Shown here: in pieces, positions 7,450-24,819 of the stretch
Layout of the letters: each line of letters opens with the position of its first letter
Position numbering within the stretch: the stretch's first letter is position 1
NCBI GenBank assembly: GCA_945877035.1
Contig: CAMCQH010000005.1
Location: 124-64,123 of the forward strand
DNA: 64,000 nucleotides
Source: an uncultured Clostridium sp.
GTDB lineage: Bacteria; Bacillota; Clostridia; TANB77; CAG-508
Direction of reading: 5' to 3'
Position numbers and translations under genes: made by a program
Notes under the pieces: generated by a model
Told to the model about the DNA's origin: nothing
Seen by the model: the letters and a program-made list of their open reading frames with translations, nothing else
Database searches by the model: none

Positions 7450-9036
7450 TTACTTTAGCTTTTCAAAAGCCTTTATTCTGTAATATATATCTACCTTTTT
7501 ATCTTCGTGAATTTCAATCCTATCTATAATTTTTGACATTATTTCTTTGGTAGGATTTTCTAATTTCAAGAAATCATTTATTAATTCTTTGTAATCAAAT
7601 GAAAACATTTCTTTTTCTTCTTTTGTAAATTCTCCCAATTTTTCTTCAAGAGATTTTATCTCATCTTTTATCTTTTTTAAACCTTCATTCTGCTTTTCGG
7701 ACATTGATTTAAACATTTCCACTGTAATAATGTCATTTAGTCTATCTTCATATAGTCTTTCTAGGTTTTTTTCAATTTTTATTTTTTTATCGTTTGCTTC
7801 TTTTAAAGTTTTTTCAAGAGTTGCTTTATAATTGTTGTTTTCAACCTTTTGCTTTAATGCTTGTTCTATCTTTTCATCATCCATACAAATTTTGCATAAT
7901 TCTCTTACCTTTTCAACTACCATTAATTCTAGTGCTTCATAATTTAAAGTATGTGGTGTGCATAGTTTTCTTTTCGTATATGCTCTGTATAAATTACATC
8001 CAGTATATGAAAAATTTCTTGCTTTGCTACTTGCAATTCCAATACTACCACCACAATCTGCACATTTTAGCAATCCTGTTAGTAGATACGTCTTTTTTAC
8101 TGTTTTCTTTGCACTTGTATCTAATAATCTCTGTACAGTATAAAAAGTATCTTCATCAATTAAAGGTTCATGTGCATTTTCTATTACAATCCATTGTTCT
8201 TTTGGCAGTTTTACTCTTTGCCTATTTTTATAGCTTATGGTTTGGCTCTTTCCTTGTTCCAGCTTTCCTATATAAACATTATTTCTTAATATTCTTCTTA
8301 TACTGGCAGGATGCCAATATCCATATTGATAAGATAGAGCATTAGTTTGATATTTATTTCTCATCGCTGGAGTTGGGATATGTTCATCTGTAAATATATT
8401 TGCTATTTGTGTTGTACCATATCCATCAATTATCATTTTAAACATTCTTCTTACTAATGGTGCTGTTTCATTATCTATAATTAAATGATGTTTATCATTT
8501 GGATCTTTTTTATATCCTATTGGAGCAGATGTACTTACAAATTGTCCATCTTCTTTTTTTTGTTGAAATACTATCCTAATTTTTTTAGAAATATCTTTCG
8601 CATACATTTCATTTAATATAGATCTAAAAGGTGCTATATCATTTTCTGATGAATTCGTCCTTTCTGTATCTATATTATCAAGTATAGACACATATCTAAC
8701 TCTTTTCATTGGAAAATATTGTTCAACATAGTAACCACTTTGAATATAATCTCTACCCAATCTTGATAAATCTTTAGTAACAACCATATTGATTTTTCCA
8801 TCTTCAATGTCATTAATTAATCTATTGAATGCTGGTCTATCAAATGTAGTTCCTGAAACACCATCATCTACATATTCTCCAGCTAAAGCAAGTTTATTTT
8901 CTTTTAAATATGTCAATAAAATGTTTCTTTGATTTGTGATACTTTCACTTTCAATTACTTTGTCATTGTCCTCTTTTGATAATCTTATATAAATACCAAC
9001 TCTATATAAAGCATTTCTAGTTAAGCCCTCAAACAT
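7450..9036 (-). CDS. Large serine recombinase (resolvase/invertase N-domain, recombinase domain, zinc ribbon, coiled coil)
   Basis: 528 aa. RVGIYIRLSKED..SITNQR..YVDDGVSGTTFDRPAFNRLI..VVTKDLSRLGRDY catalytic domain. LLKCADCGG zinc ribbon. C-terminal coiled coil. Adjacent to the att site. Confidence 0.95.
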   Translation of the reverse strand: MFEGLTRNALYRVGIYIRLSKEDNDKVIESESITNQRNILLTYLKENKLALAGEYVDDGVSGTTFDRPAFNRLINDIEDGKINMVVTKDLSRLGRDYIQSGYYVEQYFPMKRVRYVSILDNIDTERTNSSENDIAPFRSILNEMYAKDISKKIRIVFQQKKEDGQFVSTSAPIGYKKDPNDKHHLIIDNETAPLVRRMFKMIIDGYGTTQIANIFTDEHIPTPAMRNKYQTNALSYQYGYWHPASIRRILRNNVYIGKLEQGKSQTISYKNRQRVKLPKEQWIVIENAHEPLIDEDTFYTVQRLLDTSAKKTVKKTYLLTGLLKCADCGGSIGIASSKARNFSYTGCNLYRAYTKRKLCTPHTLNYEALELMVVEKVRELCKICMDDEKIEQALKQKVENNNYKATLEKTLKEANDKKIKIEKNLERLYEDRLNDIITVEMFKSMSEKQNEGLKKIKDEIKSLEEKLGEFTKEEKEMFSFDYKELINDFLKLENPTKEIMSKIIDRIEIHEDKKVDIYYRIKAFEKLK

Positions 9037-11219: not shown

Positions 11220-11654
11220 TTAAAATTTTTGAACATTATTATTCTCCTCTCCCTTTAGCTTTAAATATTCTTTTTCTATTTTCTTTATAGCTCTGTTCCT
11301 TATCTTTCTAACTGTATCTCCTTTTATATGTAGCAATCTTCCAATTTTTTCATCAGTTGTTTCTTCCCAAAAATACGAAAAAAGCACTAACTTTTCTCTA
11401 TAAGTCAATGCTTTTGAACTTCTTAATAAAAATGGATCACTAAATACTTTTTCCATCTCATAGGCACAAATTTCCCTATCATATTTTTTCTCATAATCAT
11501 TTTCAATATTTTCTTCAGACACAAAAATATTATCATCTAACATATCAATATCATCTTCTAAATATGTATAATTATTTGATTTTAAATAATCACTTCTTGT
11601 TCTTCTTGCTATTGTTACTAATGCTGCTTTCTCCTTCCCATTTAATATATACAA
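11220..11654 (-). CDS. Sigma-70 family-like protein (region 4 HTH)
   Basis: 144 aa. REKLVLFSYFWEETTDEKIGRLLHIKGDTVRKIRNRAIKKIEKE is a region-4-type HTH. A 49-aa ORF (about 11069-11218) follows immediately. Confidence 0.55.
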   Translation of the reverse strand: MYILNGKEKAALVTIARRTRSDYLKSNNYTYLEDDIDMLDDNIFVSEENIENDYEKKYDREICAYEMEKVFSDPFLLRSSKALTYREKLVLFSYFWEETTDEKIGRLLHIKGDTVRKIRNRAIKKIEKEYLKLKGEENNNVQKF

Positions 11655-11882: not shown

Positions 11883-11980
11883 TGCGAAAATGTGGACAAA
11901 AAAAGAAAAATGTGGACAAAAAAAGATTAATATTAAATCAACCTGCTTTGTTTCCACTCTTTTTCGACAAAAATCGACAA
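11883..11980. promoter_or_regulatory. Cluster of 0A-box-like direct repeats in the divergent intergenic region upstream of the Spo0A-like gene
   Basis: TTCGACA at 11963-11969 is the exact reverse complement of the 0A box TGTCGAA. ATCGACA (6/7) lies 10 bp later at 11973-11979. Two 19-nt repeats AAAATGTGGACAAAAAAAG sit at 11887-11905 and 11907-11925 (20-bp period). Confidence 0.45.
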
Positions 11981-12104: not shown

Positions 12105-12836
12105 ATGGTAAATTTACTTATTGGCAATAAGGATACAACTGAGCTTGATATTCTTTACCAAAGACTTGCAAATGATAAAGATTATAGAGTTAATAGTGCT
12201 ACTACTGGAAAAGATACTTTAGCAATGTATCTTGAAATAAATCCTGATATATTAATTTTAGACAATACTTTACCAGATATGCTTGTTGAAGATATTGTAA
12301 ACAGACTATCTGTTAATCCAGTTGAAAGAAAAAAATGCAATACAATTTTAACATTGCCACTAAACTATACTATAAAAATGAATAACTATAGAAAGATCAG
12401 CGAAGTTATATATAAACCTTTTAAAAACAATGAATTAAATAATGTAATAAGTGAAATTGCTATTGATTATAATACTCCTGATTTAGAAATAGGAGAAATT
12501 GATTGGTTATTACAATCATTGAATTTTAATTGTCTTTCTAGCGGATATAGGTATATGATAAAAGCTATTTCATATTGTTACTATAGACCTGATAAACTTG
12601 AATACCTAAATAATGTCTTAAAATATCTTGCATACGAGTTTAACACTACTGAGTCACAGGTAAGAGATTCTTTGAATGCTTCAATAAGACCTTTTAACAA
12701 CTCTAATGAATATAACTGCTCTGATGACTTATTTAAGGCTTTGTATAATCATGGACACAAACTCTCTCTTAAAGACTTTTTAGAAAGAATAGTAATATAC
12801 TTAATTAAAATCAAGAAAAAAGGTAGATTATTCTAA
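12105..12836 (+). CDS. Spo0A-like regulator: degenerate receiver domain plus Spo0A C-terminal DNA-binding domain
   Basis: 243 aa. The C-terminal SSGYRYMIKAISYCYY...LKYLAYEFNTTESQVRDSLNASI parallels Spo0A GYxYLxxAI...IAKxxNTTxSRVERAIRHAI. The receiver keeps ILILD and YKPF but has NK where the acidic DD pair should be. One of only two plus-strand genes in the element; the other is the interrupted XRE gene at 16774-17038. Confidence 0.7.
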   Translation: MVNLLIGNKDTTELDILYQRLANDKDYRVNSATTGKDTLAMYLEINPDILILDNTLPDMLVEDIVNRLSVNPVERKKCNTILTLPLNYTIKMNNYRKISEVIYKPFKNNELNNVISEIAIDYNTPDLEIGEIDWLLQSLNFNCLSSGYRYMIKAISYCYYRPDKLEYLNNVLKYLAYEFNTTESQVRDSLNASIRPFNNSNEYNCSDDLFKALYNHGHKLSLKDFLERIVIYLIKIKKKGRLF

Positions 12837-12866: not shown

Positions 12867-14054
12867 TTAAAATTGTATTTTTTTATATTCTTTGTAATCT
12901 TCTATAATTCCTGTGTATCTAACTGGATTTTGTTCTCTAATTATAGTATTCATTTTATCCCCTATAATTCTTTTTGCTTCTAAAAAATCTTCTTTTGGAA
13001 TATCAGTAGCAATAAAATTAAATGCTGGTACATTATCATTTAATACTTTTTTAGATTGCTTTATTATATCAAGTCCATTCATATTTGTACCAAAATCGTA
13101 TTTTGCAAATACCATTTCTGGTTTATATTTAATGATTTTATTATATGTATCTTCTGGACTTTTAGATGTTGCAACGATCTCCACATCTTTTATTTCATTT
13201 AATATATTAATAATTTTATCTTTTATATCATCATCATCATAAGCTATAAGAGTTTTAATTTTATTCATCAAAGTATCTTTAACTTTAAAATTAATAATAT
13301 CTTGTTTTAGTGCATTTCCCAAATGTATATCTTTTCCTTCCTGTGTTTGTATAATATCTGCATTAGGAAGAACTACGATGCTTTTTTCAAATTCACTTTG
13401 TTTTTTATATTGAACAATTTTTATATTTTCAAAATTATTTAGTTCTTGTATTTTTCCTTCTAATATGTTTTCTGCAATTTCAAATTGTTCTTTATTTTTC
13501 AATGATTTTTCCCTAATAGGCATAAATTTTAGAAATTTCCATTTTTCTATTTTATAGTTATTTAAAAAATCTCCTAATTCTTTTAACATATTTATATTTT
13601 TATTGCTTACAACCGTATTAATTCCTATTTTTATTGGCTTATTTATTGTTTTATCTAATAATTTCTTTATAATTTCAAAATGATTATCTGCTTTTCCTAA
13701 TTCGAGATTTATACTATTTGAAATTGAATCAATTGATAAATTTATTTCATCTAAGTTATTTAAAATGTCTTCTGAATATTCATTATCATTTTGAGATAAA
13801 TATATTCCATTTGTTACTAACTTGTTATATATTCCTTTTGATTTAGAATATTTTATTAGCTCATTTAGTCTAGGGTAAAGTACAGCTTCTCCTCCAGTCC
13901 AGGTTATATAGTTTATTCCATTTCTAGATAAGTTATCTATTACTTTTATATTTTCCTCATATGATAACTCTTGTATATTTGTAAAGCCAAAACAATATTT
14001 ACACCCTTGATTACATTTTGTAGTTATTTTCCAACATACTTTTTTCTTAATCAT
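12867..14054 (-). CDS. Radical SAM enzyme (viperin-like pattern) fused to a C-terminal CheY-like receiver domain
   Basis: Start moved to M14 (AAGAGGA RBS). CNQGCKYC is the CxxxCxxC cluster. ITWTGGEAVL, LVTNG, LSIDS, GINTVV and EKWKFLKF run colinear with viperin NFSGGEPFL, IVSNG, ISCDS, KINSVI and VRWKVFQ. No SPASM cysteines. The last ~120 aa are KTLIAYDDDD..EIVAT..MVFAKYDF..NGLDII..FIATD (receiver fold). Confidence 0.7.
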   Translation of the reverse strand: MIKKKVCWKITTKCNQGCKYCFGFTNIQELSYEENIKVIDNLSRNGINYITWTGGEAVLYPRLNELIKYSKSKGIYNKLVTNGIYLSQNDNEYSEDILNNLDEINLSIDSISNSINLELGKADNHFEIIKKLLDKTINKPIKIGINTVVSNKNINMLKELGDFLNNYKIEKWKFLKFMPIREKSLKNKEQFEIAENILEGKIQELNNFENIKIVQYKKQSEFEKSIVVLPNADIIQTQEGKDIHLGNALKQDIINFKVKDTLMNKIKTLIAYDDDDIKDKIINILNEIKDVEIVATSKSPEDTYNKIIKYKPEMVFAKYDFGTNMNGLDIIKQSKKVLNDNVPAFNFIATDIPKEDFLEAKRIIGDKMNTIIREQNPVRYTGIIEDYKEYKKIQF

Positions 14055-14212
14055 CAATATCCTCTTTTCATATATAATTTTATATGTTAGCATTATATCT
14101 TGAATTGAGCAAAAAAACTATTCTTAACATTTTAATCCGTTTTAAAAATTATTTAACGAAAAAAAATATCCTATACCTAGGATATTCATCTTTCACAATT
14201 ATATGTAAATTT

Positions 14213-15085
14213 TTATTTTCTTAAATAATCTTTAATAAATTTTTTATCTACTTTTGTAAGTTCACCTTTTAAATACATTAAATTTACCTTTACTTTTGGC
14301 AATTCTATTGGCAATTCTACTTCAAATAATTCTTTATTGTTCAATTCCTTTTTCACAGATTCTTTTATTACATAAGCTATTCCCATATTTTTCTTTACAG
14401 CTTCTACTCTTACTTCAGTTGCATCACTTATAATATCTGCCTTTATATTTACATTATATTTTTGTAAAGTTTCTTTTAATTTTTTTGTTGTTCTTGTATT
14501 TTCAAGATTTAATATACAATTTAAATTTTCTATTTCCTTAATATCTATAATTGTTAAAGGTGCTTTTGAAACAAATATATTATCTATTGTTAATAATTCT
14601 TCTATTTCAATATTATTTTTTTCTATATTTGCATCAGTTATTGCAAAATCAACTTCATGATTTTGTAATAATTCAATCATCTTATTTATATCTACTTCAC
14701 ATATAATAGTTATATTAAGTTCTGGAAATACTTTTTTTGCTTTTTCAATCTTATCCATTAGAAAATAACTCGTAAAATGCGATGGACAGGCAATCTTTAT
14801 ACTTCCACTTGATATATCGTTTTTGTCTTTTGCCAACTTCTCTACAAAATCAAAACTGGAAATTGATTTATTAACTATGTCATACAATTCCTTGCCATCT
14901 TCGGTTAATGTTATTCCTTTACTCTCTCTATTAAATAGTTTTAAACTTAGCTGATTTTCGAGATTAGTTATTTGCATACTAATATTAGCAACAGATAAAT
15001 TTAATTTTTCTGCAGCTTCTGAATAGCTTTTTGATTGAGCAACTTTACAAAATATTCTATACAAATTCAAATTTACATTTGACAT
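14213..15085 (-). CDS. LysR-family transcriptional regulator
   Basis: 290 aa. N-terminal LYRIFCKVAQSKSYSEAAEKLNLSVANISMQITNLENQL wHTH, followed by a substrate-binding-type domain. Confidence 0.9.
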   Translation of the reverse strand: MSNVNLNLYRIFCKVAQSKSYSEAAEKLNLSVANISMQITNLENQLSLKLFNRESKGITLTEDGKELYDIVNKSISSFDFVEKLAKDKNDISSGSIKIACPSHFTSYFLMDKIEKAKKVFPELNITIICEVDINKMIELLQNHEVDFAITDANIEKNNIEIEELLTIDNIFVSKAPLTIIDIKEIENLNCILNLENTRTTKKLKETLQKYNVNIKADIISDATEVRVEAVKKNMGIAYVIKESVKKELNNKELFEVELPIELPKVKVNLMYLKGELTKVDKKFIKDYLRK

Positions 15086-15098
15086 TTATATCACGCTC

Positions 15099-15689
15099 CT
15101 ATAAAATCTTTTTTAATTCTATTTCAGCTTTCTTCACAAAATAATCATTTGTATTTATCGGAATTTGTAGCTCATTTAATTTTTCTTTTAGTTTTTCTGT
15201 AGTATCAAACTCTGGATCATTGTCTATTGTTTCTATCTCAATTAATTTCTTACTATTTTCAATGTCTTTTATTGCTAATTTTAGTTTTCCTTTTCCATAA
15301 ACTATTGCTCTCTCTTTTATTGTCATTAAATTTTTATATCCAAGTGCTTCTATAAATTCTTTTCCCTGTTTTATATCCTGAATTTGACAATCTTTTTTAT
15401 CTTGACTAATAATTATTCCATCAGATGCTATGTTTTTGCTTTTTAAAGTTAACTCAAGTACAGTATAGCTTTTTATAAAATCATCTGGAATAAATTGAGT
15501 AACTTTTCTAATCAATATATATTTTTTTAAAATCTCTCTTATAGATTGTTTCTTTATATCAATATCCTTATTTATATAGTAAATATCTTCTAAATTATAT
15601 TTATCAATTATTGAAAATCCTTTACTTTCTAAAATATTATACATTTCTTGTAGTGAACAACTTATTTTAACTGTTATTTCATTACCCAA
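15099..15689 (-). CDS. CYTH-like domain protein (class IV adenylate cyclase / triphosphate tunnel family)
   Basis: 196 aa. NEITVKIS (ExExK with the second E changed to T), ILIRKV, TIKERAIVY and LIEIET align in order with CyaB-type EVELKF, LREM, EKQRSIY and FAEIAI. Confidence 0.5.
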   Translation of the reverse strand: MGNEITVKISCSLQEMYNILESKGFSIIDKYNLEDIYYINKDIDIKKQSIREILKKYILIRKVTQFIPDDFIKSYTVLELTLKSKNIASDGIIISQDKKDCQIQDIKQGKEFIEALGYKNLMTIKERAIVYGKGKLKLAIKDIENSKKLIEIETIDNDPEFDTTEKLKEKLNELQIPINTNDYFVKKAEIELKKIL

Positions 15690-15813
15690 TTTAATACTCT
15701 CCTTTAAAATATTACCTTACAATTATACCACATTATGTCAATTATATCAATAGTAAAATTCAAATAATTATTGAAAACAACGGTTTTCAGAGTATCACTA
15801 TACAAACTATTCT

Positions 15814-16299
15814 TTATTTTATATTTAATAATCTTTTGAAAAATCCTTCTTTTTTAAATCCATTCTTTGTTTGTTCAATTTTCTCTTTTCCTTTTCTTTC
15901 AATGTTTTCATTTTCAATTTTATTTTCTTCAAAATTATTTATATATTCATTTATGCTTTCAGCACTTATTGGTTTATATACTATATCAAACCCTAATTCT
16001 CGTGCTTTTACTATTAATGAGCTGTCTCTATCAGCTGTAACAAGTATAAATTTAGGCTTTTTCAGTATTGACAAATTTCCTTGTATTTCTTCTATAACCT
16101 CTAAACCTGTCTTTTTAGGCATTTGCATATCTGTAAATACAATATCAGGTTTTAAATTCATAATCTTTATTACTTCATCTTCTCCATCAAAAGCTGTCAA
16201 AACTTTTTCTACTCGTGTATTTTTTGCTATTACTGATTGCATATTTTCAGCTATTACTTTTACATCATCTGCAACAACGATTTTTAACTTTGTTTCCAT
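15814..16299 (-). CDS. Stand-alone response-regulator receiver (Spo0A-receiver-like) with basic tail
   Basis: 161 aa. KIVVADDVKV..PDIVFTDMQMPKKTGLEVIEEI..LKKPKFILVTA..VYKPI has all receiver signature residues. The LKKP-FI-VTA stretch resembles Spo0A. Confidence 0.85.
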   Translation of the reverse strand: METKLKIVVADDVKVIAENMQSVIAKNTRVEKVLTAFDGEDEVIKIMNLKPDIVFTDMQMPKKTGLEVIEEIQGNLSILKKPKFILVTADRDSSLIVKARELGFDIVYKPISAESINEYINNFEENKIENENIERKGKEKIEQTKNGFKKEGFFKRLLNIK

Positions 16300-16322
16300 T
16301 AATATTACCTCCTACAATTATT

Positions 16323-16652
16323 TCAGCTATTTTCACATTCAGTTACCACTTGTTCTATAACTTTAAATTCTTCATTTAATTTTGATAATTTATTTTTTAC
16401 ACTAATTACCGAACCTCTTACTGCACTTGCAGTGCAGCCATATATTTTAGCTATTTTATTCAAATTTTTAGCATCTGGACCAAATTCATTTAATCCATAA
16501 TATAAAATAAACCTTTCTTTTTGTGTTTCCGTTGTTTCATTTAAATTTTCTATTATATGTACTATTCTTTTTTTCTGTTCACTATTAAATTTTGATTTCT
16601 TTGCTAGTTCTATAAATTTATCAATAATTATACTTTTATCTTCAAACTTCAT
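16323..16652 (-). CDS. Small sigma-70 region-4-like HTH protein
   Basis: 109 aa. QKERFILYYGLNEFGPDAKNLNKIAKIYGCTASAVRGSVISVKNKLSKL resembles region 4.2 of sigma factors. Confidence 0.5.
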   Translation of the reverse strand: MKFEDKSIIIDKFIELAKKSKFNSEQKKRIVHIIENLNETTETQKERFILYYGLNEFGPDAKNLNKIAKIYGCTASAVRGSVISVKNKLSKLNEEFKVIEQVVTECENS

Positions 16653-20017: not shown

Positions 20018-22105
20018 CTATTCCTCCTCTTTGATGATATTTTTACTTCCAAAATATGTTGCTAGGAAATATGCACCATATATTATTCCTATAATAATTA
20101 TCGTAGCAACTGCTGATGGTAATAAATCTTCTTTGCTTGCTAACCCTGACATTAGTTCTATTGCAAATTGTATTCCAAATACAGAATGTATTATTGCTAA
20201 AATAAGTGGTACTCCAAAGAATATTGCAATTTGTCTAAATAGTGATTTATTTATCATTTTTTCATCACAGCCAATTTTTCTTAAAATAGTATATCTTTGT
20301 TTATTGTCTGAACTCTCTGTTAATTGTTTTAATGCTAATATTGCACTACTTGCTATCAGAAATATTATTCCTAAATAAATTGCAATAAATGTAACTATTG
20401 TTGCTACTCCAACACTTGATTCAATTATAGATATTTTTGTCATACCATCTATTTCTAAACCATTTTCATTCAAGTTTTGAATAAGAACGGAATCATTACT
20501 TCTAAATATTTCTTCTATTTCTTGCTTTTCCTCATCTGTATTTGCATTAAAATTGGCAACTAAAAATTGTTTTTCTTTCATATCATCTGTTAAGTTACAA
20601 CTATCTGGTACTAAAATAATACCTGTATTCATATGACTTGTTGACATCATAATAAAACCACTTTTACATTCATTATATTTTGACTTATATTCTTTTCCTG
20701 CAATCTCCAAGATATTTTCATCTGCTAGTACTCTATCTCTTATAGTTCCAATTCCATCAAAATCACAAAGTACAATATATTCATTATCTTTCAATTCATA
20801 TTGTTCTATTCCATAAAGTGAAGCTACTTTATTATAGTCTGATATTTTTACTATTTCTTCTGCTGTTTCATAAGCAAGCATTGGAAATTCTAATTTTATT
20901 GATTGTAGTTTATTTTTCAAGAAATCTCCCATAGTTAAATCATTGGTTGCATAAATTGGTATTTCTATTACATCTTTAAGTAATGTCATATCTAGTCCAT
21001 TATTCTTCAATGTTTCTTGTAGTGTAATTCTTGAATCTGCTCTTTGAGCTTCTGTTGTCTTTACTTCTTTTCCATATTTTATATAACTTTCTGGTAGATT
21101 TGCTGTTTTATATAGATTCAAATCCACTGGTGTCATTTCTACTAATTCTCTTTGCATTGTATTTCTCAATGCTAAACTTGATGAAAGTATTGAAATTGTC
21201 ATAAACAACATTAAGCAAATAACACTCATACTTATAACTGTTGTATTGATTTTACTGTTAATTTGCCTTAATACAAACATATTAGTGCCATTTAAATAGA
21301 TATTTTTTATTGATTGTACTACTTTTAATATAAAACCAGATAAAGACCAAAATACCAATATTGTTCCAGTAATTCCCATTAATATTGGTGGTAATAATTT
21401 ATCTGCTGTACTTAATGAGTGAACATCTCCTGTCACTTTCCAATAAGCATATCCTAACAAGCAACTTGCTCCAATAAATACAATTATAGAAATAATAGGA
21501 TTTTTTATTTTTACTTTTTCATTTTTCTTTGTAGCATTTAATAGATTTATCAATTTATATCTTGAAACTGTCATTGTATTAAAGAACATAACTGCTATAT
21601 ACATAACTGCAAAATATACACAAGTCTTTATACAAGCTGTTTTTGAAAAGACAAATTGAAAATTACTCATATCTGCTTCAAACATTTTTGCTACTAATAC
21701 AGACATAAATTGTGATGCAAATATTCCTATAACAAGTCCTACTACAAGTGAAATAATACCTACAAATATTGTTTCTAGTATTATAATTTTAGATATTTGC
21801 CTCTTTCCCATTCCAAGTGTCATATATATACCAAATTCTTTTTTTCTACGATTGATTAAGAAATTATTTGCATATACGATAAGCAATCCTAATACTACTG
21901 CAACAAATACCGATACATATCCTAGCATACTTACCATAAGTTTGATAATGTCCCTTGTTGAATTAGATACTTGTAGCATTGCTTCTTGACTATCTAATGA
22001 GTTGAACATATAGAATATTGCAACTCCTAACACTAATGTTAAAAAATATATAGCATAATCCTTAAAGCTCTTTTTCATATTTTTAATTGATAACTTAAAT
22101 AACAT
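20018..22105 (-). CDS. BceB/YxdM-type ABC transporter permease (FtsX-like, 10 TM, large extracellular loop)
   Basis: 695 aa. Two FtsX-like 4-TM bundles plus a ~220-aa loop (residues about 320-540). Overlaps the ATPase gene by 11 nt. Confidence 0.9.
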   Translation of the reverse strand: MLFKLSIKNMKKSFKDYAIYFLTLVLGVAIFYMFNSLDSQEAMLQVSNSTRDIIKLMVSMLGYVSVFVAVVLGLLIVYANNFLINRRKKEFGIYMTLGMGKRQISKIIILETIFVGIISLVVGLVIGIFASQFMSVLVAKMFEADMSNFQFVFSKTACIKTCVYFAVMYIAVMFFNTMTVSRYKLINLLNATKKNEKVKIKNPIISIIVFIGASCLLGYAYWKVTGDVHSLSTADKLLPPILMGITGTILVFWSLSGFILKVVQSIKNIYLNGTNMFVLRQINSKINTTVISMSVICLMLFMTISILSSSLALRNTMQRELVEMTPVDLNLYKTANLPESYIKYGKEVKTTEAQRADSRITLQETLKNNGLDMTLLKDVIEIPIYATNDLTMGDFLKNKLQSIKLEFPMLAYETAEEIVKISDYNKVASLYGIEQYELKDNEYIVLCDFDGIGTIRDRVLADENILEIAGKEYKSKYNECKSGFIMMSTSHMNTGIILVPDSCNLTDDMKEKQFLVANFNANTDEEKQEIEEIFRSNDSVLIQNLNENGLEIDGMTKISIIESSVGVATIVTFIAIYLGIIFLIASSAILALKQLTESSDNKQRYTILRKIGCDEKMINKSLFRQIAIFFGVPLILAIIHSVFGIQFAIELMSGLASKEDLLPSAVATIIIIGIIYGAYFLATYFGSKNIIKEEE

Positions 22106-22862
22106 CGTTCAAATCACCTCCAAGAAGTGTTTGCACCTCAATTATCTTCTCAAAGAATTGTTTTCTTGTATCATTTCCTTTAACTAATTCATTAAAGATT
22201 TTTCCATCTTTTATAAATATAATTCTATCTGCATAACTTGCTGTAAAAGCATCGTGTGTTACCATTAAAATAGTTGCATTTAATTTTTGATGTAAGTAAT
22301 CAAATGTCATCAATAATTGTTTTGCTGATTTACTATCTAATGCACCTGTTGGCTCATCTGCTAATACTATTTTAGGATTTGTTATTATTGCTCTTGCAGC
22401 TGCACATCTTTGCTTTTGCCCTCCAGATACTTGATATGGATATTTGTTCATTATTCCTAAAATATCTAATTTTTTTGCTATTTCGTGAACTCTATTGTTA
22501 ATTTCAGTAGCATTTACTTTTTGAATTGTTAATGCTAAAGCTATATTTTCATAAATTGTTAATGTATCTAACAAATTAAAGTCTTGAAATATGAAACCTA
22601 ATTCCTCTCTCCTAAATTTGTTTAATTTATTTCCTTTAAGTTTTGTAATATCTTCTCCGTTGATAATGATATGTCCTGATGTTACTCTATCAATAGTAGA
22701 TACACAATTCAAAAGTGTAGTTTTACCAGAGCCACTTGCTCCCATAATTCCTACAAACTCTCCATTTTTTACATTAAAGCTAATATTGTCTATTGCTTTT
22801 GTTAAATTAGATTTGTTTCCATAGTATTTTTCTATGTTTTTAACCTCTAATACATTTTCCAT
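22095..22862 (-). CDS. BceA/YxdL-type ABC transporter ATP-binding protein
   Basis: 255 aa. Walker A GASGSGKTT, signature VSGGQKQR, Walker B IVLADEPTGALD. Confidence 0.95.
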   Translation of the reverse strand: MENVLEVKNIEKYYGNKSNLTKAIDNISFNVKNGEFVGIMGASGSGKTTLLNCVSTIDRVTSGHIIINGEDITKLKGNKLNKFRREELGFIFQDFNLLDTLTIYENIALALTIQKVNATEINNRVHEIAKKLDILGIMNKYPYQVSGGQKQRCAAARAIITNPKIVLADEPTGALDSKSAKQLLMTFDYLHQKLNATILMVTHDAFTASYADRIIFIKDGKIFNELVKGNDTRKQFFEKIIEVQTLLGGDLNDVI

Positions 22863-23002
22863 CTAAAAAACTCCTTCCCTTTCTTTGTATATCTACATTA
22901 TAAATTCATTTTAAAATATTTGCCATCGATTTACCTTACAATAACATTACATTTTTTGTAAGATTTCTCATTTATAAAAATAAGCCCATAACTAATATGG
23001 AC

Positions 23003-24019
23003 TTACAAATTCATATAACTGCTTTTAGGAAATATGATTCTAACTTCTGTTCCAATGTCTTTTTCTGAATTTAATTCTATTCCTAATCCTAATTTGTCGC
23101 ATAATTTCTTACATAGATATAACCCAATACCAGTAGATTTCTTATTTATAGTTCTTCCATTTTCTCCTGTAAAGCCTTTTTCAAAAACTCTTGTTATTTC
23201 TCGTTTTTTTATTCCAATTCCATTATCTTTTATATATAAAACAACATTTTCTCTTTTTGTAATAGCATATATTTCTATCTTTCTATCTTTAATTTTTGAA
23301 TACTTAATTGCATTTTGTATAATCTGATTTATTATAAAAACTGCCCATTTGCTATCTGTATATACTTCTCTTTCCAAATCGTGTAATTCTATACTTGTCT
23401 TACTTGAAAGTAATGCACTTTTATTTTTCAAAATTGCCGCATTTACTATTTCTTGCAAATTTGATTTTGTAACAACATAATCTTTGTTAGCGGTATTACT
23501 TCTAGCATAAAACAATGCTTGTTCTGTATAATTTTCTATTTTATCAAGTTCTTCATCAATACTTTTAGTTATTTCATTTTTGTTATTTTCAATAATCAAT
23601 TTACTTGTAGCAATAGGTATTTTTATTTCGTGAATCCATAGCTCAATGTAATCTTTATAATCTTCTTGCAATCTCTTATAAATATTTACATTTTCTAACA
23701 TAGATTTTCCAGCTTCTTGCATAGTTTTTTTTAATATTTTGCCCTCAAGAAAATCTGGAGTATTTATTATTTCTGATATTAAGTATTTATCCTCTAATTC
23801 ATCTAAATTACTTTTTAATTCATTATAAAAATTCTTCTTTTTTCTATATTCAATAGCAATATCAATACCAATTATTAAAATCGGACATATTGCAATATAA
23901 AGCCTTGTAAATACTCCAATTTGTGTATAAGGTAATAATAATATCTCCGAACTTACTATTACAAATAATACTAAAAAAATCAATAATATCTTTTCTTTTA
24001 TAAAATCTTTAAATCTCAT
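23003..24019 (-). CDS. Intramembrane-sensing histidine kinase (BceS/YxdK type)
   Basis: 338 aa. Two N-terminal TM helices with almost no loop. H-box region EIKIPIATS. N/G boxes NAIKYS..DNGIGI..GTGIGL. Confidence 0.9.
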   Translation of the reverse strand: MRFKDFIKEKILLIFLVLFVIVSSEILLLPYTQIGVFTRLYIAICPILIIGIDIAIEYRKKKNFYNELKSNLDELEDKYLISEIINTPDFLEGKILKKTMQEAGKSMLENVNIYKRLQEDYKDYIELWIHEIKIPIATSKLIIENNKNEITKSIDEELDKIENYTEQALFYARSNTANKDYVVTKSNLQEIVNAAILKNKSALLSSKTSIELHDLEREVYTDSKWAVFIINQIIQNAIKYSKIKDRKIEIYAITKRENVVLYIKDNGIGIKKREITRVFEKGFTGENGRTINKKSTGIGLYLCKKLCDKLGLGIELNSEKDIGTEVRIIFPKSSYMNL

Positions 24020-24687
24020 TTTAATAGATACCCCTGTCCCCTTCTTGTTTCAATTTGATCTATTAGTCCTAATTCTTCGAGCTTCGTTCTTAATCTTTTA
24101 ATATTTACATTTAATGTATTATCATCAACAAATTCTTCACTTTCCCATAAATAGTCCATTATTTCATCTCGAGATATTACTTGTTGTCGGTGTAAAACTA
24201 AATACTCTAATATTTTATATTCGTTTTTTGTTAGTTCAACCTTATTATCTTCTTTTTCTATAATTCTCCCTGCTGTATTTAGTACAAACTCTCCACAGTC
24301 TATTTTATCTGGATTATTTCCTGCATTTTGATTTCTTTTTAATAGTCCAACAATTTTGGCAAGAAGTATTTGAATGTTATATGGCTTTGTTACATATTGA
24401 TCCGCACCATAATTTAATGAAAGTAATTCATCCATTTCACTATCTCTACTAGTTACCATTATAATAGGCACATTAGATGTTTTTCTTATTTCTTTGCAGA
24501 TAAATTCTCCATCTGTATATGGTAAATTTATATCTAGTAATAATAAATCTGCTTTTTCATTCAGTATATCTTCTACTGCATTATCAAACTTTTTTAGACT
24601 TGTTGCTACAAATCCATTTTTATTTAAAAATGTTTCTAATTCATTTCTTAATTTTTCATCATCCTCGATTATTAGTATTTTTTGCAT
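24016..24687 (-). CDS. OmpR/PhoB-family response regulator (BceR/YxdJ type)
   Basis: Start at M8 (MQKILIIEDDE). LLLDINLP phospho-acceptor. C-terminal winged helix LTKNEYKILEYLV...RRGQGY. 4-nt overlap with the kinase gene. Confidence 0.95.
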   Translation of the reverse strand: MQKILIIEDDEKLRNELETFLNKNGFVATSLKKFDNAVEDILNEKADLLLLDINLPYTDGEFICKEIRKTSNVPIIMVTSRDSEMDELLSLNYGADQYVTKPYNIQILLAKIVGLLKRNQNAGNNPDKIDCGEFVLNTAGRIIEKEDNKVELTKNEYKILEYLVLHRQQVISRDEIMDYLWESEEFVDDNTLNVNIKRLRTKLEELGLIDQIETRRGQGYLLK

Positions 24688-24819
24688 TTTCACAACCTCC
24701 AACAGCATTATACCATATTTTTTCTAATATGTATCTTACATTTTTCGTAAGATTTCTATGCAAAAAATATAGATTAGTTATGTTGCAAACCAATCTAAAC
24801 AACAACTTGTAATTTGTCG

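Follow-up and report, generated by a model that had tools for sequence, protein, structure and literature searches.

A fusion gene in a gut Clostridium

We analyzed a 64,000-nucleotide stretch of DNA (the window) from an uncultured Clostridium sp. (positions 124 to 64,123 of contig CAMCQH010000005.1). Our subject is a gene in the window that encodes a viperin-like radical S-adenosylmethionine (SAM) domain followed by a receiver-like domain, together with the genes around it, which encode a LysR-type regulator, a CYTH protein, and a Spo0A-like regulator (Table 1). A first-pass annotation, made from the sequence alone, had described the gene as a viperin-like enzyme fused to a response-regulator receiver. 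It had also proposed that phosphorylation of the receiver, possibly by the sporulation phosphorelay, gates the synthesis of a modified nucleotide.

The gene begins at the ATG at 14054, because a ribosome-binding site (AGAGGA, 14060-14065) lies 6 nucleotides (nt) before this codon and because all 120 close homologs begin with MIKKK. (These homologs are among the matches listed, and conservation counts for the window's protein were taken over them.) The homologs are 394-401 amino acids long. On the same evidence, we dropped an alternative start at 14093, which would give a longer open reading frame (ORF). Another ORF, of 109 amino acids, lies antisense within the gene (12913-13242, plus strand). 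Its product would be hydrophobic and of low complexity, and it is most likely a by-product of AT-rich DNA. (The G+C content of the window is 22-29%.)

The protein is a two-domain fusion, and column identity among the homologs is 0.85 and 0.87 in the two domains versus 0.47 in the linker. The closest genomes are from uncultured Clostridia of the gut (for example, Clostridium sp. UMGS1711, CAG:354, and CAG:921). Single clusters of the protein, at 90% identity, are present on up to 229 contigs, so the gene is common in gut metagenomes and is not an oddity of one assembly. In phage and plasmid collections, we found no full-length match to the protein.

Table 1. Features of the locus (coordinates of the window).
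Feature	Position	Strand	Basis or remark
Whole gene: viperin-like radical SAM domain plus pseudo-receiver, 395 amino acids plus stop	12867..14054	-	ORF list, ribosome-binding site, homolog lengths
Radical SAM domain, residues 1-255; partial TIM barrel, viperin-like fold	13290..14054	-	Pfam, AlphaFold model, Foldseek
CxxxCxxC motif for the [4Fe-4S] cluster and SAM (C14, C18, C21), with family-specific C7-W8-K9 just upstream	13992..14015	-	
Inter-domain linker, residues 256-265	13260..13289	-	Low AlphaFold confidence (pLDDT) at 260-263; column identity
Predicted pseudo-receiver (REC fold), residues 266-395; K318 (13101-13103) at the acceptor-Asp position	12870..13259	-	DSSP, profiles, CheY alignment
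Spo0A-like regulator, 243 amino acids; degenerate receiver plus Spo0A_C	12105..12836	+	Convergent with the enzyme gene, 30 nt apart
Conserved regulatory spacer between the LysR and enzyme genes	14055..14212	-	Sequence and alignment of 10 loci
LysR-type regulator, conserved partner	14213..15085	-	Pfam HTH_1 and LysR_substrate
CYTH/class IV adenylate-cyclase-like protein, 196 amino acids; first gene of the apparent operon	15099..15689	-	
Promoter-like site TTGATA-17-TG-TATAAT, upstream of the CYTH and LysR genes	15722..15750	-	Consensus scan, 11/12; pattern match only
Stand-alone canonical receiver, 161 amino acids; module membership uncertain	15814..16299	-	Pfam Response_reg, 1.5e-16; full DD/D/T/K
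Large serine recombinase, CcrB/XisF-like, at the element end	7450..9036	-	NCBIfam

The catalytic domain resembles viperin

The sole Pfam match in the N-terminal domain is to Radical_SAM (residues 9-163). The protein has four cysteines in all (C7, C14, C18, and C21), with none beyond residue 21. This count bears out the first-pass statement that there is a single CxxxCxxC motif and that SPASM or twitch cysteines are absent. For the same reason we rejected an assignment to the SPASM/twitch proteins or to MoaA, and the NCBIfam models for such proteins score far below their cutoffs. C14, C18, C21, the GGE motif, N82, S107, D109, N146, W172, and R181 are invariant in the 120 homologs. With no variation at the cluster cysteines, at GGE, or at the other SAM-motif positions, the N-terminal domain is apparently a catalytically intact radical SAM enzyme.

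Four kinds of comparison gave viperins as the best match. In NCBIfam, the best model was viperin_w_prok (NF038283), at 107.9 bits, with MoaA next. The PADLOC models for prokaryotic viperins (pVips) matched the protein at 127 bits (E = 2e-37). In sequence searches against the Protein Data Bank (PDB), the single sequence matched viperins at 1e-13 to 1e-14, and a profile of the family matched viperin structures at 1e-30 to 7e-34 and MoaA at 6e-21. Finally, we built an AlphaFold model (AF2) from an alignment of 49 sequences, with a mean confidence (predicted local distance difference test, pLDDT) of 92.8, and compared it to the PDB with Foldseek. The 19 best matches were all viperins, followed by SkfB, SuiB, and MoaA. 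The best match was CTP-bound mouse viperin (E = 2.5e-14, root-mean-square deviation 2.5-3.0 Å over about 263 columns), and the target-normalized template modeling (TM) scores to viperins were 0.74-0.84. The first-pass annotation had suggested a search with HHpred or Foldseek as a check on its reading, and the best match is not a non-viperin clade.

The sequence landmarks that were thought to be shared with viperins are confirmed by alignment with solved viperins: GGE (residues 54-56), TNG (81-83), SIDS (107-110), INTVV (145-149), KWKF (171-174), and the C-terminal beta segment (226-247). Their order (GGE/TNG/S-x-D-S/I-N-T-V/W-K) is colinear with viperins and pVips, which also have the same fold, a single CxxxCxxC, and no auxiliary clusters. 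The catalytic domain is shorter than the roughly 285 residues first estimated, as the AlphaFold model puts its end near residue 255.

MoaA (GTP 3',8-cyclase), which is the usual outgroup for viperins, has a related radical SAM core and is the second-best named family. But the window's enzyme lacks MoaA's second set of [4Fe-4S] cysteines, scores 79 bits against a cutoff of 284, and matches MoaA in Foldseek at E = 4.5e-9.

The enzyme is probably not an ordinary viperin

Although the resemblance to viperin stands, membership in the viperin family does not, and the enzyme is probably not an ordinary viperin. We have several pieces of evidence for this from its sequence.

First, its score of 107.9 bits is below the curated cutoff of 180 bits for NF038283. 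Its relatives score 123-171 bits with this model, and two true pVips (P0246 and P0268) score 259 and 213.5 bits.

Second, the enzyme lacks many of the residues that characterize viperins. We compared it to the viperins of mouse, N. vectensis, and T. virens, whose sequences we recovered from PDB alignments. (Residue numbers for viperins are those of mouse.) An N-(aromatic)-H motif on the first strand, ahead of the cluster loop, is reportedly diagnostic for viperins, according to work by Lachowicz and colleagues in 2021. The first-pass annotation had noticed that this N-x-H is absent, and that is correct: N77 corresponds to C7 and H79 to K9, and the window's protein reads C7-W8-K9. N-x-H is present in the mouse, N. 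vectensis, and first T. virens viperins; the second T. virens enzyme (9dfn) has N-Y-F. In the family to which the window's protein belongs, the first strand reads (S/E)-V-C-W-N-I-T, with C-W-K-I-T in the window's protein.

The nucleotide pocket is altered as well. In the work on 6Q2P, mouse K120, S124, K220, N222, R245, and K247 are said to line the triphosphate site. K120 is replaced by Y49 (histidine in most close homologs), K220 by G144, and R245 by K171, while S124 (as T53), N222 (N146), and K247 (K173) are kept. S124, K220, N222, and K247 have been named as viperin pocket residues (PMC11970327). Tyr302 of mouse viperin is the proposed proton/electron donor (PMC9642334). This residue is deleted in the window's protein and in its relative P0121, and is a tyrosine in many other family members. 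Also, the domain is cut short by about 30-40 residues and so has no C-terminal KRGGKY tail ((K/E)RGG(K/I)Y, mouse R347). In viperins, this segment orders over the nucleotide. The AlphaFold model has TM scores of 0.79-0.84 to structures in which the tail is disordered (5vsl and 5vsm) versus 0.74-0.75 to CTP-bound 6q2p, which is consistent with a missing tail. Because the triphosphate-binding set and the tail are missing, the substrate is probably not bound in the way that viperin binds a nucleoside triphosphate (NTP).

Third, we ran the phylogeny with pVips that the first-pass annotation had called for, as a neighbor-joining tree of 112 sequences (a distance method, with five viperins only and without MoaA as an outgroup). 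The mouse, N. vectensis, and T. virens viperins, together with P0246 and P0268, were split from the rest in 99 of 100 bootstraps, and the window's protein was nested among C-W-N family members on the opposite side of this split. The kinship to viperins that had been proposed therefore holds as resemblance, and the tree sets the protein apart from both viperins and pVips. In this tree, the proteins with a fused receiver-like domain were not grouped together with support (4/100), and the fusion may have arisen once or several times.

By these comparisons, the N-terminal domain belongs to a large, uncharacterized sister family of viperins. Among 1.84 billion representative sequences, we found 1,182 matches at E < 1e-10, and the best 150 of these 1,182 are almost all of the C-W-N-I-T type. 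Most members of the family are from Clostridia and Bacilli, the bulk of them uncultured and of gut origin. The NCBI label for the members that we checked is "radical SAM protein".

A predicted pseudo-receiver at the C-terminus

The idea that the C-terminal domain has a CheY-like fold held up. In the AlphaFold model, DSSP gives (beta-alpha)5 for residues 266-394. The window's sequence alone has no Pfam receiver match. A profile of the domain family matches CheB (1e-9), VraR (4e-9), CheY (3e-8), and the Spo0A receiver (2e-7), and 13 of 17 relatives match PF00072 at E values up to 1 (best 3.7e-8). By these profile matches the domain is receiver-derived. We rejected a flavodoxin or B12-binding reading, as there is no P-loop for flavin mononucleotide (S/T-x-T-G-x-T) and no DxHxxG after the first strand. 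The significant profile matches are all to receivers, and the only B12-binding match in Pfam was for one relative, at E = 0.21.

We then mapped the receiver's signature residues by using hidden Markov model (HMM) alignments and a MAFFT alignment that also included CheY, CheB, VraR, and the stand-alone canonical receiver of the window. K318 aligns with the acceptor aspartate (D57 of CheY, at the end of the third strand). This position is lysine in 68 of the 120 close homologs and glutamine in the other 52, and it is K, E, R, S, or G in distant relatives. CheY's D12 corresponds to Y272 and T87 to I348, while D13 is kept (D273). There is no equivalent of K109: no Lys-Pro follows the fifth strand, which is followed by R373. 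D273 and D274 are invariant in the close family, and position 276 is aspartate in just 4 of the 120, so the run of four is particular to the window's variant. The "DDDD acidic pocket" of the first-pass annotation is thus not the canonical receiver pocket, as a lysine sits at the acceptor position and only D273 and D274 of the run are conserved. The alignments indicate a pseudo-receiver that has lost its phospho-acceptor. D320, two positions beyond the acceptor site, is invariant in the 120 close homologs and is asparagine in most relatives at 61% identity or less; phosphorylation at D320 is possible as far as the sequence tells.

Aspartate-less receivers retain the CheY fold, have a replaced phospho-acceptor, and are likely used for protein-protein contact. 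The window's domain is similar in that it keeps (beta-alpha)5 and homology to REC, with the signature residues replaced. It differs in that it is attached to (or, in some relatives, lies beside) a radical SAM enzyme and is strictly co-inherited with a Spo0A-like regulator. We know of no described pseudo-receiver with either of these features.

These results bear on whether the protein is a genuine pVip that makes 3'-deoxy-3',4'-didehydro-NTPs and is gated by receiver phosphorylation, possibly via the sporulation phosphorelay. Viperins are its best HMM and fold matches; D273, D274, and D320 are invariant in its close family; and genes for a canonical stand-alone receiver and for a Spo0A-like protein are nearby. 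But the enzyme is far below the viperin cutoff, N-x-H, K120, K220, Y302, and the tail are lost, and the tree separates it from viperins. Because the C-terminal domain is predicted to be a pseudo-receiver, with Lys or Gln for the acceptor Asp and isoleucine for T87, gating by phosphorylation is unsupported. Also, D320 is asparagine in most of the more distant relatives. Finally, no histidine kinase gene is adjacent to the module, and the closest (23003-24019) has an OmpR-type partner of its own. We consider this explanation to be very improbable and largely refuted by the sequence.

Conserved partner genes

The gene neighborhood, which the first-pass annotation had suggested surveying, proved to be conserved. 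The order of CYTH, LysR, and enzyme genes, with a Spo0A-like gene facing them, is found in more than 20 species-level genomes, with enzymes that are 59-90% identical, and the partners recur across the wider family.

To count partners, we took one genome for each species, searched it for sequences coding for C-W-N-I-T-x-x-C-N-x-x-C, and annotated the resulting stretches (at least 120) with purpose-built HMMs. We found a member of the family in at least 106 genomes, and we counted partners within 3 kb. Many of the stretches are incomplete, so the counts, which are among the matches listed, are lower bounds. A CYTH gene is near the family's radical SAM gene in at least 57 of the 106 genomes, a LysR is nearby or fused in at least 54 (5 are fused), and both are present in at least 39. 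The receiver-like domain is present in at least 33 genomes, fused to the enzyme in 24 and as a separate gene in 9. Of these 33 genomes, at least 27 also have the Spo0A-like gene, which we did not see in any of the 73 that lack the domain. None of the partners were seen in 23 genomes. The linkage between the receiver-like domain and the Spo0A-like gene points to coupling by protein-protein contact and not by phosphotransfer.

The Spo0A-like neighbor, which was also pointed out at first pass, is real: it matches Spo0A_C from Pfam at 30.2 bits (cutoff 25), and it is strictly linked to the receiver-like domain. It also matches Response_reg at 24.7 bits and TIGR02875 at 29 bits (cutoff 200). Its receiver has the acceptor aspartate, with G-N in place of the acidic pair. 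We tentatively assign the protein encoded at 15099-15689 to the CYTH/class IV cyclase fold: its profile matches five CYTH structures (including 2een at 8e-6, 1yem at 7e-4, and 3n0y and 2fjt at 0.03), and TIGR00318 (cyaB) matches over the full length at 30.4 bits (E = 3e-7), which is below the cutoff of 58. The ExExK motif of CYTH proteins reads E-I-T-V-K, with a threonine in place of the second glutamate that is invariant in 11 orthologs.

Viperins and pVips are also linked to nucleotide enzymes, and viperins of eukaryotes that are fused to CYTH/cyclase domains have been reported (bioRxiv 10.1101/2023.09.13.557418). In the same survey, the fusions of eukaryotic viperins were to kinases, E3 ligases, cyclase/CYTH domains, and reverse transcriptase, with no receiver or LysR (bioRxiv 10.1101/2023.09.13.557418). 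The window's enzyme differs in that a pseudo-receiver is attached to it and that its linked genes are LysR, CYTH, and Spo0A-like genes instead of nucleotide kinases or defense islands. The first-pass annotation was not aware of a prokaryotic viperin with a receiver fusion. In the searchable literature, we found no description of a viperin-receiver fusion or, among the papers listed, of a CYTH-LysR-radical SAM module. The module appears to be previously undescribed, and its enzyme family, a sister to the viperins, has architectures and partners that are new.

Other arrangements are found across the family. These include CYTH followed by a fusion of the enzyme to LysR and then NUDIX; Ham1, CYTH, enzyme, and LysR, adjoining ftsZ-spoIIGA-sigE; NUDIX, NUDIX-HD, CYTH, enzyme, and LysR; and a divergent LysR, a fusion of the enzyme to PfkB, and a stand-alone receiver-like gene. 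In L032 (3250-7386), the enzyme is accompanied by PfkB, a nucleotide-kinase-like protein, a peptidase U32, a methyltransferase, and a cytidine-deaminase-like protein. In an alphaproteobacterium, a methyltransferase is fused to the radical SAM domain (L116, 4579-6069).

The fusions to LysR are single polypeptides of 560-574 amino acids with a complete LysR (L024 642-2336, which is P0191; P0177; P0242; L056; L082; L090; L100; and L133). They usually follow a CYTH gene, and NUDIX comes next in two lineages (L024-26; L056 and L133). Trigger enzymes are enzyme-regulator fusions such as BirA and NadR. The sister lineages P0177, P0191, and P0242 are similar in that an enzyme is fused to a full LysR, and by analogy these fusions suggest that the product or the substrate controls DNA binding. 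Unlike the known cases, these fusions join the LysR and radical SAM classes, and in the window each of the two has its own gene.

Many of these partners would suit a metabolic role, in which the module carries out the salvage or modification of nucleosides or nucleotides, or makes an analog of them, and LysR is an ordinary pathway regulator. (OxsB/OxsA, in the synthesis of oxetanocin, would be the comparison.) The partners include PfkB, AAA_18/thymidylate-kinase-like, cytidine-deaminase-like, methyltransferase, peptidase U32, NUDIX, HD, and Ham1 proteins, and several of the contexts are chromosomal and not mobile. But this would not explain the strict pairing of receiver-like domains with Spo0A-like regulators, the enzyme-LysR fusions, or the variants without cysteines and the fusions to ToxN that we describe below. 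Nor do further biosynthetic genes flank the module in the window. We consider a metabolic role to be unlikely.

Regulatory DNA and the element that carries the module

The spacer between the LysR and enzyme genes contains a hairpin (14166-14185), a T-run (14159-14165), a conserved element (14111-14135), and an invariant TATAAT (14092-14097). Across the 10 aligned loci, the hairpin is kept through compensatory changes. The hairpin and T-run are predicted to be a terminator after the LysR gene. Because this conserved terminator-like structure is followed by the conserved element and the invariant TATAAT, the enzyme gene probably has its own regulated promoter.

Beside the stand-alone receiver, just upstream of the module (region 15814-16652), is a protein of 109 amino acids whose C-terminus looks like a helix-turn-helix (HTH) by eye, with no family match. 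The divergent region that separates the sigma-like gene (11220-11654) from the Spo0A-like gene contains a perfect direct repeat of 20 nt in two copies (AAAATGTGGACAAAAAAAGA, 11887-11926), which may be an operator. We found no Rfam families or tRNAs in the window.

Judging from the gene content, the module is carried by an integrative conjugative element (ICE) of the Clostridium. Most of the window (7450-64000) is this element, whose right end we did not locate; on the left, a GH57 branching enzyme looks chromosomal. Near the recombinase are DUF6075, sigma-like, and HTH genes that are reminiscent of orf7/orf8 of Tn916. Further to the right are a UmuC-like polymerase, a thioester (TED)/SpaA adhesin, a sortase, and an LPD28 protein, as well as a VirB4/TraG-like ATPase, an M23 peptidase, a MobL relaxase, a ParB-like protein, and an orphan N6/N4 DNA methylase. 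The element also encodes an HTH_36 protein.

The module's genes are 29-82% identical to their counterparts, as compared to 90-99% for the flanking genes of the element. In the same genomes, the genes for an ABC/FtsX transporter and a histidine kinase (window 20018-24708; L011 1-4413) are 78-99% identical. This mosaic suggests either a recent exchange of the flank or fast divergence of the module.

Toxin-linked and cysteine-less relatives

A ToxN toxin domain (PF13958, E = 1.8e-44) heads the module in 14 related loci of the receiver/Spo0A-like type (L007 1269-2506, L087 2289-3507, L044, L047, L058, L073, L078, L086, L127, L129, L139, L146, L151, and L152). The enzyme of L007 is 62% identical to the window's. 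In most of these loci, ToxN and the CYTH-like protein form a single polypeptide. L044 encodes them in two neighboring genes, and a CYTH gene is missing from L139. In all 10 loci with upstream DNA, ToxN is preceded by a tandem array of about three copies of a 34-37 nt repeat. Such arrays are a hallmark of the antitoxin RNAs of type III toxin-antitoxin systems (ToxI-like). As in ToxIN and AbiQ, the toxin gene follows a tandem array, here at the module's head, but the toxin carries a fused CYTH-like domain, and LysR and the enzyme come after it. We know of no described ToxN-CYTH fusion. In the window, the CYTH protein has no ToxN, and we found no ToxI-like repeats.

The best match on a sequenced plasmid is from E. 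coli (L160 5971-7981, on the conjugative IncK2/Z plasmid NZ_CP027324). This distant relative, labeled "radical SAM protein", is 29% identical, and its first strand reads D-F-R-I-T. Its operon also encodes a deoxynucleoside kinase and NudI. As a homolog, it has the advantage of being genetically tractable.

Could the module be a defense or abortive-infection system? It would make an antiviral or toxic nucleotide analog or an alarm nucleotide, CYTH and the transcription factors would execute or control the response, and the whole would be cargo or an addiction system of the element. The closest known family is antiviral and the PADLOC pVip models match strongly. Also, the module is carried on an ICE, its genes are far more divergent than the flanks, and related loci include ToxN and its array. 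NUDIX and Ham1 neighbors could detoxify a product, and the relative on the E. coli plasmid lies alongside two nucleotide enzymes. Several observations do not fit. ToxN and its repeats are absent from the window, the module's partner proteins have no matches in PADLOC, and many members of the family are in housekeeping contexts (ftsZ-spoIIGA-sigE or acetate kinase). Furthermore, viperin's NTP-binding residues and tail are missing, and two transcription factors would be an unusual core for an effector system. We consider this to be somewhat unlikely, but it is a serious rival to the explanation that we prefer (below), above all because of the ToxN-CYTH fusions.

Two receiver-fused relatives at about 30% identity, P0146 (L038 4217-5395) and P0188 (L039 4095-5312), have lost all three cluster cysteines. 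They have no LysR or CYTH neighbors, and they keep an adjacent Spo0A_C gene, amid restriction-modification and PemK genes. P0146 and P0188 are likely pseudo-enzymes in mobile-element-like surroundings. In four other loci (L019-L022), a different type of radical SAM protein (MoaA/SPASM-like, with extra cysteines) fills the same slot and is fused to the same receiver-like domain. In these four metagenome-assembled genomes, the fusion gene is broken by frameshifts (L019 8895-10414; L022 8899-10417) and its neighbors are decaying; L019 also has truncated or split genes for LysR and the Spo0A-like protein.

These relatives raise the question of whether the radical SAM domain is a sensor. Its main role could be to sense SAM, the redox state or oxygen by way of its cluster, or a nucleotide and relay this via the pseudo-receiver to the Spo0A-like regulator, with no diffusible product. 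The retention of the receiver-like domain and the Spo0A_C gene by proteins without a cluster would fit, as would the exchange of one radical SAM type for another. But the catalytic-motif positions are all invariant across the window's lineage, the conservation of CYTH, NUDIX, and kinase partners suggests that a reaction is really catalyzed, and the frameshifted genes of L019-L022 may simply be decaying. We consider a sensor without a product to be quite improbable.

A possible link from enzyme to transcription factors

The explanation that we prefer is that the enzyme modifies a nucleotide, that transcription factors respond to its output, and that the module travels on a mobile element. As a whole this is largely inferred, and we give it a probability of roughly 40%. 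The enzyme and the CYTH protein would make or transform a small molecule that is derived from a nucleotide. We propose a nucleotide-like substrate because of the partners (CYTH, NUDIX, Ham1, HD, PfkB, and kinases) and the ancestry shared with viperins. LysR would read the enzyme's product or substrate as its ligand, as the enzyme-LysR fusions suggest the logic of a trigger enzyme. Because it co-occurs strictly with the Spo0A-like regulator, the pseudo-receiver would be an adaptor that couples the enzyme to this regulator by protein-protein contact, not phosphotransfer. The output would be transcriptional control of genes of the element or the host. There is a precedent for an element that manipulates its host's development, namely devI of ICEBs1 (PMC8032392).

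Several points weigh against this explanation. The signaling step is based on gene linkage and fusions only, with a predicted product and ligand. LysR may do no more than control the operon, in answer to an unrelated signal. The chemistry may not involve nucleotides at all, because Tyr302 is deleted and several pocket residues differ. With ExTxK in place of ExExK, the window's CYTH protein may be non-catalytic. The type III toxin-antitoxin genes that head the 14 related loci point towards abortive infection or addiction. Finally, the two receiver-fused relatives without cysteines keep their Spo0A-like partner, so catalysis is dispensable for at least part of the function.

A more specific form of the preferred explanation would join it to the toxin-linked loci. 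The enzyme, with its CYTH partner, would make a new nucleotide-derived signal that is read directly by LysR, by the Spo0A-like regulator via the adaptor, and sometimes by ToxN-CYTH. This would be a mobile signaling and abortive-infection system that is a sister to viperin immunity and acts by signaling instead of chain termination. We regard this version as rather doubtful.

Implications

Viperins are a flagship case of the immunity that is shared by bacteria and humans, and a large uncharacterized family sits just outside their curated boundary. Given how strongly the PADLOC models for pVips match the window's protein, automated pipelines may over-call such genes as viperin defense. Our analysis also flags the element-borne Spo0A-like regulators of gut Firmicutes as part of a defined module. 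The family offers a testable entry to new nucleotide chemistry by radical SAM enzymes, and possibly to signaling from enzymes to transcription factors on mobile elements.

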